The translations under genes and the position numbers were made by a program. A stretch of DNA of 20,469 bases from a virus (Duplodnaviria; Heunggongvirae; Uroviricota; Caudoviricetes), in the IMG/VR virus record IMGVR_UViG_2671180724_000020. One strand, given 5' to 3'. Below are positions 16,331 through 17,872 of the stretch, in pieces. Below the pieces are notes generated by a model, which made no database searches, was not told the DNA's origin, and saw nothing but the letters and a program-made list of their open reading frames with translations. Position 1 is the stretch's first letter. Every line of letters begins with the position of its first letter.

Positions 16331-16356
16331 AAAAAGGGCATTTCTGCCCTTTTTAA
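16331..16356. terminator. Bidirectional rho-independent terminator between Q and the convergent cassette
   Basis: AAAAAAGGGCA, loop TTTC, TGCCCTTTTT: a GC stem flanked by an A-run on one side and a T-run on the other, so it can terminate both the plus-strand Q transcript and the minus-strand cassette transcript. Confidence 0.6.
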
Positions 16357-16796
16357 ATGTGGGGGAGTATCCAGTTTACTTTTCTCCATGTAAAGGCAAA
16401 AGTTATTACTGAAATGATAAGAAGAGATAACGATTCGATAATTAAAATAAATTCTATTTTTTCTCCATGTAACAATGTCTTTTCATTGGCAAACATTGCT
16501 ATCAAAGCAATAACGCATGCCGTAATTAAAGATGCACCTGCGGTTAATAGATTTACAATAATAACTTGAAGTATGTTGTTGTTTTTTAATGCTTTTATTA
16601 TTCCATTTGAGTTTTCGCTAGCAGCACTAAAAATTGATATTGTGGCTAAAATAAAACCAAATAAAATACCGGATACAGTTGAAATAACCCCGGAGGCTGT
16701 AAGTATGTCAGCATGCCCCATCTGAGGGATATACCTCAGTAGGAACAAGGTGCAAAAAACACTTACAATCAGGTTTCTTAAGTATTTCAATAACAT
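16353..16796 (-). CDS. Four-helix integral membrane protein (147 aa), putative RexB-like effector
   Basis: Four hydrophobic segments of about 20 aa each. AT-rich codon usage. Start 3 nt after the stop of the upstream 313-aa gene. Local similarity to lambda RexB as I recall it (LFLLRYIPQ versus LFRHYIPG). Confidence 0.6.
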   Translation of the reverse strand: MLLKYLRNLIVSVFCTLFLLRYIPQMGHADILTASGVISTVSGILFGFILATISIFSAASENSNGIIKALKNNNILQVIIVNLLTAGASLITACVIALIAMFANEKTLLHGEKIEFILIIESLSLLIISVITFAFTWRKVNWILPHI

Positions 16797-16799
16797 ATC

Positions 16800-17741
16800 C
16801 TATACCTTCTTTTTGCTGATATCGTATTGCTTAAGGTATTCATTGTTATCAATTTTAGCAGAAATCATGGCTTGCAGAACATCACTATCAGTGCCATAAC
16901 CATTAACGGTATATATGTTTTTTTCTGAAATGAGTACCTGATCAAGAAGACTTTGTTCAACGGTATTTTTGGGCTGTGTTACTGCCGCTTTTTTTACAAT
17001 TCCCGGCATTTTTTCAAGGAGTTCTTTAATACCATCCTTAACGAGATCTGATAAATAACCTTTGACTTTTACTCTCCCTGATGCACGTCCCCTTAGATTT
17101 AACTTGAGACGTGTTCCACCCAGCCCTACCATCATATTTACCAGTTCCTTAGAAAATGAACTATTTAGCTGGTAATTTGTTGCATCAAAGTTCCTGGGAG
17201 CAGCCAGGACAATATCACAACTTCTCAAAGTACTTCCTGTTTCAAGTAGCTCTTTGACGCTCTCTTTTTTCCAGATGGCTTGGAATGCAAAGTTATTTCC
17301 AGGATTACCACTCTGGCTGTAAAGCAGATAAGCTAAATCCGATTCTTTCGGCCCAAGATGATTTTGAGTTAATATTAAAATATCACTATCGTAATAATAT
17401 AAAAAATAGGTTCTTTCGACTATGTATTTTTTATCATCTAGTGGTATGTTGTGCTCATTCCAGTGTTCATCACCAATATAAGGAAGGAGATACTCTTCTC
17501 GTGAGCATGACATGTAGCCGAAGAAATATTTAGCTTTTGTATCTTTATTTATAAAAGCTATTTTTAACTTTTTATTTCTATAGATGGTATCAAAATGATT
17601 ATTCGTAACGGTTACGCAAGTATTATACAGATTTTCAATTGCTTGCTTAGCAACTGAATGGCTGCGGATAGTCCCAGAACTGCTGGTGTAAAAACCAATT
17701 TTAAGTTTTTTTTGTTTCTTTGATTGCGCAATAGTAGCCAT
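16800..17741 (-). CDS. Soluble 313-aa protein of unknown function, putative RexA-like partner
   Basis: RBS CTAAGGT before the ATG at 17741. AT-rich, Lys/Asn/Tyr-rich. Operonic with the membrane protein. N-terminal KLKIGFYTSSSG weakly recalls the start of lambda RexA (MKNGFYATYRS). Confidence 0.6.
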   Translation of the reverse strand: MATIAQSKKQKKLKIGFYTSSSGTIRSHSVAKQAIENLYNTCVTVTNNHFDTIYRNKKLKIAFINKDTKAKYFFGYMSCSREEYLLPYIGDEHWNEHNIPLDDKKYIVERTYFLYYYDSDILILTQNHLGPKESDLAYLLYSQSGNPGNNFAFQAIWKKESVKELLETGSTLRSCDIVLAAPRNFDATNYQLNSSFSKELVNMMVGLGGTRLKLNLRGRASGRVKVKGYLSDLVKDGIKELLEKMPGIVKKAAVTQPKNTVEQSLLDQVLISEKNIYTVNGYGTDSDVLQAMISAKIDNNEYLKQYDISKKKV

Positions 17742-17872
17742 GCTAAACCTTAGTATGCTAATAATTTCTTATGGGGCTTATTTTTATATGGCTTTAATTT
17801 AGCAAAAAAAATTACCGCGGTCCGCAAATTTTATCTTAATCTGTTAAGAGTGGTTACTTCGCCACACAGCTT

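Follow-up and report, generated by a model that had tools for sequence, protein, structure and literature searches.

A DUF6731 and four-helix membrane protein gene pair beside a prophage Q gene as a candidate divergent RexAB-type exclusion module

What is the role of two reverse-oriented, AT-rich genes that lie immediately downstream of the antiterminator gene Q of a prophage? The question is raised by positions 16330 to 17804 of IMGVR_UViG_2671180724_000020, a 20,469-nucleotide (nt) sequence of a Caudoviricetes virus, the whole of which is referred to here as the window. An earlier reading of this locus, made from the DNA without database searches (the sequence-only reading), proposed that the two genes, designated A and B below, encode an exclusion system like lambda RexA/RexB. 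The results of the present analysis suggest, with a probability of about two in three, that A and B form a prophage-borne, two-gene RexAB-type exclusion (abortive-infection) module, part of a divergent Rex branch composed of DUF6731 proteins and their partners with four predicted transmembrane segments. The firmer part of this proposal is one of kinship: A and B are likely to be related, in evolution or in structure, to RexA and RexB. Less assured, though still probable, is that the two work together as an anti-phage exclusion system of two components. The two genes are as follows.

16800-17741, minus strand: gene A, encoding a soluble protein of 313 amino acids (aa) in Pfam family DUF6731, with a predicted RexA-like two-domain fold; proposed infection sensor or activator.
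16353-16796, minus strand: gene B, encoding a 147-aa inner membrane protein with four predicted transmembrane helices; proposed RexB-like effector or channel.

The open reading frame (ORF) map agrees with the earlier description of two minus-strand genes, 3 nt apart, that oppose all of their neighbors; the flanking genes (DnaB-like, DUF968, Q, a 75-aa ORF, and a methyltransferase) are all on the plus strand. A and B are real genes rather than chance ORFs, because full-length homologues with 38 to 98% identity are present in Enterobacterales and Vibrio. The cdt-I converting phage carries the cassette at 99.5% identity, and the cassette was found in 25 of 5426 complete Escherichia coli genomes, many of them from pig enterotoxigenic E. 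coli (ETEC). When more divergent alleles were included in a DNA search, the count rose to 54 of the 5426.

Protein A has no hydrophobic segment on the Kyte-Doolittle scale, which, together with the length of its ORF, bears out the earlier call of a 313-aa soluble protein. The sequence-only reading had also proposed a search of both proteins with HMMER and PADLOC. This search placed A in Pfam DUF6731 (PF20505; 41.3 bits against a gathering threshold of 27; expectation value, E, 1.8e-10) and yielded no PADLOC match for A or B; NCBIfam gave nothing useful for either protein. A also belongs to phrog_7651, and RefSeq labels an identical protein "DUF6731 family protein." PF20505 matches 119 of the 130 relatives of A obtained by profile search, and an exhaustive profile search of a 1.8-billion-protein library returned 241 DUF6731-type cluster representatives at E <=1e-3. 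Nothing on DUF6731 or on the RefSeq protein accessions was found in the searchable literature.

The apparent link between A and RexA lies beyond HMMER and is visible by profile-profile comparison. When a profile of 130 aligned DUF6731 sequences was compared by hhalign with a profile of 17 RexA-family sequences taken from viral loci, the two aligned end to end (254 columns, 10-295 against 4-277) with an E of 8.5e-5 and a probability of 60%. The invariant GFY at the N-terminus lines up in this alignment, pairing "KIGFYTSSSG" of A with "KNGFYATYRS" of RexA, and the resemblance of IGFY to NGFY pointed out in the sequence-only reading is thus real. The best-conserved DUF6731 motif, NHLGPK..DL, aligns on FGPTTSDL of RexA. 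As controls, a RexA profile in reverse, RexA profiles with shuffled columns (12 of them), the RexB profile, and seven unrelated proteins encoded as cargo in the same genomic slot (see below) were compared in the same way, and all gave E values of at least 0.035. The signal was obtained only with a deep DUF6731 profile against the RexA family profile; hhalign results were not significant with a shallow A profile or, whatever the profile used, when lambda RexA was entered as a single sequence. The top PDB match of the deep DUF6731 profile, eIF2-alpha at an E of 0.02, was rejected as spurious.

The predicted structure of A is consistent with the same relationship. RexA has a split globular domain that is interrupted by a dimerization domain (PDB 8TWQ). 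The predicted secondary structure of A proceeds from a beta-rich N-terminal domain through an inserted alpha/beta domain to C-terminal helices, an order that fits the RexA layout, and the predicted fold includes both the split globular domain and the inserted dimerization domain. The lower-ranked structural matches of A are the relatives that the RexA structure paper names for RexA itself (PMC11077077). The global template-modeling scores (TM-scores) were low (0.34), as they should be if two domains are joined by a hinge; RexA was crystallized in a closed form and is predicted to be able to open (PMC11077077). Stand-alone RdgC (PDB 2OWL) was rejected as an identity for A, the match to it being clearly weaker than that to RexA. 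Unlike A, RdgC is a stand-alone chromosomal protein that has no membrane partner.

Four hydrophobic Kyte-Doolittle segments in protein B (residues about 5-25, 32-58, 75-103, and 113-137), along with four long helices in an AlphaFold (AF2) model with a predicted local distance difference test score (pLDDT) of 84.3, substantiate the earlier description of a four-transmembrane protein. The Lys and Arg residues of B are concentrated at the N-terminus, in the loop between the second and third segments, and at the C-terminus. By the positive-inside rule, the only basis for the topology given here, both termini and the central loop would be cytoplasmic. This is the topology reported for RexB and for gp31 of mycobacteriophage Sbash, in which the N-terminus, the C-terminus, and the central loop are all cytoplasmic (PMC6426596). 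As predicted, then, B is an inner membrane partner of the expected size, about 145 aa, with four transmembrane helices and cytoplasmic termini; it has 147 aa versus 144 aa for RexB, and the transmembrane segments of the two are at matching positions. The central loop is conserved in the B family and corresponds to the loop of Sbash gp31.

At the sequence level, BLASTP aligned residues 9-54 of B with residues 17-62 of lambda RexB, in register and at an E of 0.012, over a stretch that spans LLFRHYIPG. The RexB-type motif LFRHYIPG that the sequence-only reading had named is therefore present in an alignment. Comparison of the partner family with RexB-family alignments by hhalign gave E values from 1.2e-5 (probability 81%) to 1.7e-3 (15%), varying with the partners included. 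The aligned region was constant, comprising the first two transmembrane segments and the central loop, and reversed and shuffled controls gave E values of at least 0.03. The Pfam RexB model matched 2 of 11 B-type partners, at E values of at least 0.039. This sequence link between B and RexB is suggestive only and is not significant alone. The sole family assignment for B was phrog_8552, and comparison with the PDB returned nothing meaningful. In a viral structure library, the second-best match of the B model was a 165-aa protein (A0A0A7RXT6; probability 1.0, TM-score 0.55) of Sbash, a phage with a validated Rex-like pair, of which this protein may be the membrane member, gp31. B was also considered as a holin or lysis accessory and rejected: no holin family scored above threshold, and B lies on the strand opposite late transcription, upstream of pR'.

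A and B are adjacent and co-oriented, with the putative sensor preceding the membrane protein, and they are inherited as a unit. Among 80 viral loci with an A protein 43 to 100% identical to that of the window, a protein of 145 to 157 aa was encoded directly 3' of A on the same strand in every case (one copy is truncated), usually after a spacing of 2 to 28 nt. A hydropathy script assigned three or four transmembrane segments to these partners. In Thiococcus, Aeromonas, and metagenomes, all eight of the distant DUF6731 genes that were inspected were followed by an ORF of 132 to 170 aa, often overlapping, and hydropathy plots of these eight partners also gave three or four transmembrane segments. 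Shewanella and Pseudoalteromonas encode close relatives of one of the distant metagenomic DUF6731 proteins. As judged from these genes, DUF6731 proteins with putative four-transmembrane partners are broadly distributed across Gammaproteobacteria. The most divergent close relative (Vibrio L001/L002, 5001-6478) is a 341-aa protein whose first helix is followed by an acidic insertion about 25 aa long, and it is accompanied by a 150-aa partner; this Vibrio pair lies outside any obvious prophage, among short-chain dehydrogenase genes and near toxR/toxS-like genes.

In Aeromonas hydrophila GCA_015944655.1 (L127, 3265-5435), a cI-type repressor gene (helix-turn-helix, HTH, and S24 peptidase domains) is followed by A and then B, all co-oriented, with a cro-like gene divergent from them. 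The Aeromonas A protein has 318 aa (BLASTP E of 7e-47 to window A), and B has 155 aa (E of 4e-14). This arrangement is the lambda cI-rexA-rexB layout. The prophage that carries it is P2-like, with Ogr/Delta, CP76, and integrase genes. The sequence-only reading had left a choice between a very divergent Rex-like module and an undescribed pair of a sensor and a membrane effector. The RexB-like features of B, the invariant pairing, and the cI-A-B order in Aeromonas favor the former.

The surroundings of the pair in the window include the following control signals and landmarks.

16331-16354, both strands: bidirectional intrinsic terminator common to the convergent Q and A-B transcripts; 10-base-pair (bp) stem with A-run and T-run arms.
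17742-17804, minus strand: leader and presumed promoter region of the cassette, AT-rich and reaching the right insertion boundary; the promoter is presumed only.
17748-17751, minus strand: AAGG ribosome-binding site, 6 nt upstream of the A start codon.
15964-16329 (alternative start 15952), plus strand: antiterminator gene Q, a flanking landmark (PF06530; Pfam E 5e-52; RefSeq annotation of the identical region), convergent with B.
17805-17897, plus strand: conserved pR'-like element, a flanking landmark outside the cassette, which abuts Q in cassette-less relatives.

The claim that the pair forms an AT-rich block was borne out: the GC content of 16331-17800 is 34.4% versus 47.7% for the rest of the window, and GC at third codon positions (GC3) is 0.31 in A and 0.30 in B versus 0.54 to 0.59 in neighboring genes. 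Q itself is fairly AT-rich (GC 0.42, GC3 0.34, below the upstream genes), and thus the low-GC block begins inside Q. The bidirectional terminator proposed earlier is also well supported. Its hairpin has fold energies of -13.0 and -13.4 kcal/mol on the two strands (z-scores of -3.4 and -4.1) and takes up the entire 23-nt interval from the Q stop codon to the B stop codon. The proposal that the pair has its own ribosome-binding site and promoter held for the ribosome-binding site. The promoter did not emerge from the sigma-70 scan described below; a promoter for the cassette in its AT-rich upstream region is plausible.

The exact position of the cassette beside Q is indicated by phages that lack it. 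In the cassette-less phage PhiR5_1, a conserved element about 95 nt long comes immediately after a Q gene that is 73% identical to that of the window. The core of this element is GCGGTCCGCAAA...TGTTAAGAGTGGTTACTTCGCCACACAGCTTAAACCCGCCG.CGAGCGG followed by a T-run; the window copy at 17805-17897 reads GCCGTCGAGCGG, followed by a T-run at 17879-17897. From the alignment with PhiR5_1, the cassette, with its terminator and leader (16330-17804), was inserted precisely from the Q stop codon to the element. The earlier placement of the pair between Q and the late region can therefore be refined to the interval between the Q stop codon and this pR'-like element. The element is also found in SfII, SfIV, Stx2, and PhiR phages and is kept upstream of A in most divergent cassettes. 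A scan found a terminator-like site within it, and the putative tR' hairpin (17868-17900) folded no better than shuffled sequence. The element probably comprises the Q-dependent late promoter, the Q-utilization site, the leader, and the tR' terminator. The predicted consequence is that A-B is outside pR' transcription and antisense to read-through of the early right operon, the classic arrangement of a moron that is expressed in the lysogen.

A Q gene of the PF06530 type is convergent with B, 15 to 124 nt away, in 72 of the 80 viral loci that carry A. Q alleles 85 to 89% identical to window Q adjoin A alleles with 43%, 62%, and 100% identity. This decoupling of A/B identity from Q suggests that, at a fixed site, either alleles have been replaced repeatedly or the cassette has diverged very fast.

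To place the cassette among other genes found at this site, the gap between Q and the element was surveyed in the 80 viral loci with the Q most similar to that of the window. These were the best 80 of at least 600 matches, and the proportions are indicative only. Twenty-seven of the 80 loci carry the A-B pair, including three whose contig ends before the element (24 otherwise). Other inserts of 0.9 to 2.3 kilobases (kb), nearly always on the strand opposite Q, occupy the gap in 50 loci, and Q directly abuts the element in only 2. The annotated cargo was as follows.

Q-pR' slot, 13 loci: PDC-S42 with two small partners (PADLOC).
Q-pR' slot, 6 loci: PDC-S20, KAP NTPase (PADLOC E 5e-176).
Q-pR' slot, 3 loci: TIR-TM (PADLOC E 1e-57).
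Q-pR' slot, 2 loci: NucC-like PD-DExK nuclease (PADLOC).
Q-pR' slot, 1 locus: HNH effector (PADLOC).
Q-pR' slot, 1 locus: PDC-S49 (PADLOC E 4e-132).
Q-pR' slot, 5 loci: NYN (Pfam).
Q-pR' slot, 1 locus: putAbiC (Pfam).
Q-pR' slot, 2 loci: SDH-type protease (Pfam).

Cargo without any annotation included proteins of 343 aa, 379 plus 142 aa, 267 aa, 356 aa, and 372 aa plus a 170-aa transmembrane protein. Two other slot pairs (305 aa with a 151-aa transmembrane protein, and the 372-aa and 170-aa pair) were evaluated as Rex-like and rejected, their soluble proteins scoring E values of at least 0.086 against the DUF6731 and RexA profiles. The filling of the slot with defense-type cargo supports a defense role for A-B. 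It also explains why A-B adjoins Q, so that a functional link to Q is not needed and is weakened. We regard it as unlikely that the placement between Q and pR' is itself functional, with A also acting on the Q/pR' late switch and coupling exclusion to late-gene commitment. No Q-proximal defense hotspot was found in the searchable literature, and, as far as that literature shows, the Q-pR' gap as a hotspot for defense cargo appears to be new.

Downstream of the element, the tR'-like site and the gene for an orphan type II-like DNA methyltransferase (18373-19431; PADLOC MTase_II, E 3e-153) flank a conserved 75-aa ORF (17995-18222), which has no Pfam match and is present in many related loci. The methyltransferase gene is followed by tRNA-Met(CAT) and tRNA-Arg(TCT) genes (19472-19704), just downstream of the pR'-like element; RefSeq names the first of these tRNAs Ile in the identical region. 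Stx- and cdt-converting phages show this methyltransferase-tRNA layout upstream of their toxin genes.

The A-B pair resembles and departs from the Rex systems already described. Its identity with lambda RexA/RexB (PDB 8TWQ; PF15969/PF15968) is only about 10 to 14%, A is 34 aa longer than lambda RexA, and no internal promoter like lambda pLIT was seen. The lambda pair is downstream of cI, whereas the window pair is between Q and pR'. RexABpp of Pseudomonas putida prophage P1 (PP_5643/PP_5644; Sci Rep 2026, PMC12894663) has a longer RexB, at least 181 aa, and is near a cI-like repressor gene. Sbash gp30/gp31, CarolAnn gp44/gp43, and Butters gp30/gp31 are two-gene, prophage-expressed pairs of a cytosolic RexA-like protein and a four-transmembrane protein, and A-B would be a further such pair. 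In these actinobacteriophage systems the membrane protein's central loop, which is cytoplasmic, matters for function. Their RexA-like proteins have 337 to 372 aa and a reported DUF4747 motif rather than DUF6731, and their hosts are Actinobacteria. A location downstream of cI is not universal among accepted Rex-like systems, as exemplified by Sbash and Butters (PMC11077077). The RexAB-like systems described so far number only five, according to the 2026 P. putida paper (PMC12894663). Kiwa, in which KwaA is paired with KwaB (DUF4868), was rejected as an identity for A-B: there was no PADLOC match at E values up to 1 and no Pfam DUF4868 match, and the gene order is reversed, the membrane protein coming first in Kiwa.

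Several results weigh against assigning A-B to the Rex systems. No curated RexA or RexB model, from either Pfam or PADLOC, detects A or B. Pfam RexA (PF15969) matches neither A nor any of the 130 DUF6731 members, and PADLOC RexA (PDLC02339) matches neither A nor two distant DUF6731 members; Pfam RexB (PF15968) and PADLOC RexB (PDLC02340) do not match B at family thresholds. The PADLOC models match lambda RexA and RexB at E values of 9e-110 and 1e-61, respectively. Searches of PDB sequences by phmmer and hmmsearch with A and its profiles did not retrieve RexA. The hhalign probabilities across the A and B links are only 15 to 81%, and the unrelated 170-aa transmembrane protein from the same slot scored an E of 0.002 against the B profile. 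The lambda RexA DNA-binding residues R219 and K221 are not conserved in the A alignment, in which they pair with P257 and N259; therefore, DNA binding by A is not predictable from the alignment. The cassette adjoins Q rather than cI, and the cI-like gene of the window (8180-8875) has no Rex-like neighbor, leaving the pair outside the immunity region. A sigma-70 consensus scan of the minus strand from 17742 to 17900 found no promoter. Even in lambda, the trigger of Rex exclusion and the coupling of RexA to RexB are still unsettled (PMC12894663). Of the proposal that this is a RexAB-like pair, the size, the topology, the gene order, and the DUF6731-RexA profile match stand, and recognition by the curated models does not. 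A-B does not fall within the RexA and RexB families as currently defined, and the most fitting description is that of a divergent variant of the Rex kind. Judged by the literature that could be searched, placing DUF6731 and its partner family in a Rex superfamily appears to be new, and so does the breadth of the two families across Gammaproteobacteria.

The immunity region of the window (7572-8875 and 9003-9275) contains the cI-like repressor gene (HTH and S24 peptidase; minus strand), a second HTH protein gene at the lambda rexA position (7572-8063, minus strand), and a divergent Cro/YdaS-like gene; there is no canonical rexAB. The local GC content dips to 0.35 at 7800-8400. A further low-GC stretch (0.38 to 0.40) at 5400-7000 includes minus-strand ORFs at 5661-6242 (193 aa) and 6631-6996 (121 aa) with no Pfam or PADLOC match. 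These early-left ORFs may be further morons.

If A-B is a RexAB-type module, it could operate as follows. In the lysogen, leftward transcription of the pair would start in the AT-rich region upstream of it, without dependence on the lytic operons and antisense to them, and would end at the bidirectional terminator shared with Q. Protein A, RexA-like and probably a dimer, would bind DNA or a nucleoprotein complex and sense a superinfecting phage through an infection-specific cue. Activated A would then switch on B, a four-helix inner membrane protein that would probably oligomerize into a channel. The resulting membrane depolarization would lower adenosine triphosphate (ATP) levels and arrest growth, and the incoming phage would fail to propagate. 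We infer expression in the lysogen, dimerization and DNA binding by A, signaling from A to B, channel activity, and the anti-phage phenotype in this scheme.

An alternative is that the pair regulates the prophage's own life cycle, with A, as a DNA-binding protein of the RexA/RdgC type, modulating the lysis-lysogeny or late-gene decision at Q/pR' and B serving as a membrane anchor or modulator. Lambda RexA does act on the bistable CI-Cro switch independently of RexB (PMC11077077), and A-B is not only convergent with Q in most of the viral loci (72 of 80) but also back-to-back with the conserved pR'-like element. However, many unrelated cargo genes that bear defense signatures are found in this slot, and a hotspot accounts for the adjacency to Q. 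Furthermore, the pair is also found away from any Q, as in Vibrio, in Aeromonas beside cI, and in P2-like contexts, and Q is 85 to 89% identical in loci among which A spans 43 to 100%. A role in the prophage's own decisions is improbable.

Another possibility retains defense but assigns the work differently: the effector would be the soluble RexA-like protein, which might, for instance, bind phage DNA or block it, and the membrane protein would only localize or regulate this effector, with no channel. Such a logic is reported for Butters gp30/gp31, a RexAB-type system in which, as cited in PMC12894663, the cytosolic protein is the effector, and the predicted fold of A is that of the DNA-clamping proteins RdgC and RexA. 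In contrast, lambda, Sbash, CarolAnn, and P. putida have the membrane protein as their effector (PMC12894663), and the loop of Sbash gp31 to which the conserved central loop of B corresponds is one whose mutation abolishes defense (PMC6426596). We consider this division of labor as doubtful as a life-cycle role. Slightly less likely still is that A-B is a moron unrelated to defense, with a membrane or stress function, a toxin-antitoxin-like addiction role, or a part in lysis, and that its likeness to RexA reflects only a shared ancient fold. The RexA/RdgC/CHL4 fold serves several distinct DNA-related functions (PMC11077077), and the pair has no catalytic motif and no match in defense databases. 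The RexAB-type exclusion module remains the preferred reading.

Current defense annotators miss the A-B pair. Cassettes of this type are carried by the cdt-I converting phage and by prophages of pig ETEC and human E. coli, and they may affect which phages infect these strains. With this Q type, the Q-pR' gap nearly always contains reverse-oriented cargo, often a known defense candidate, which provides a rule, based on position, by which new anti-phage genes could be located in lambdoid prophages; if the rule is true, the unannotated cargo genes in this gap would be new defense candidates. If the relationship proposed here is correct, tying DUF6731 and its unnamed four-transmembrane partner family to RexA and RexB would enlarge the Rex family considerably and would supply many natural variants for the study of RexA-RexB coupling, which, 70 years on from the rII experiments of Benzer, is still unexplained. 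The DUF6731 proteins, together with the four-transmembrane partners that invariably accompany them, would then constitute a large, unrecognized branch of a Rex superfamily, one that enterobacterial lambdoid prophages have recruited to the interval from Q to its late promoter.

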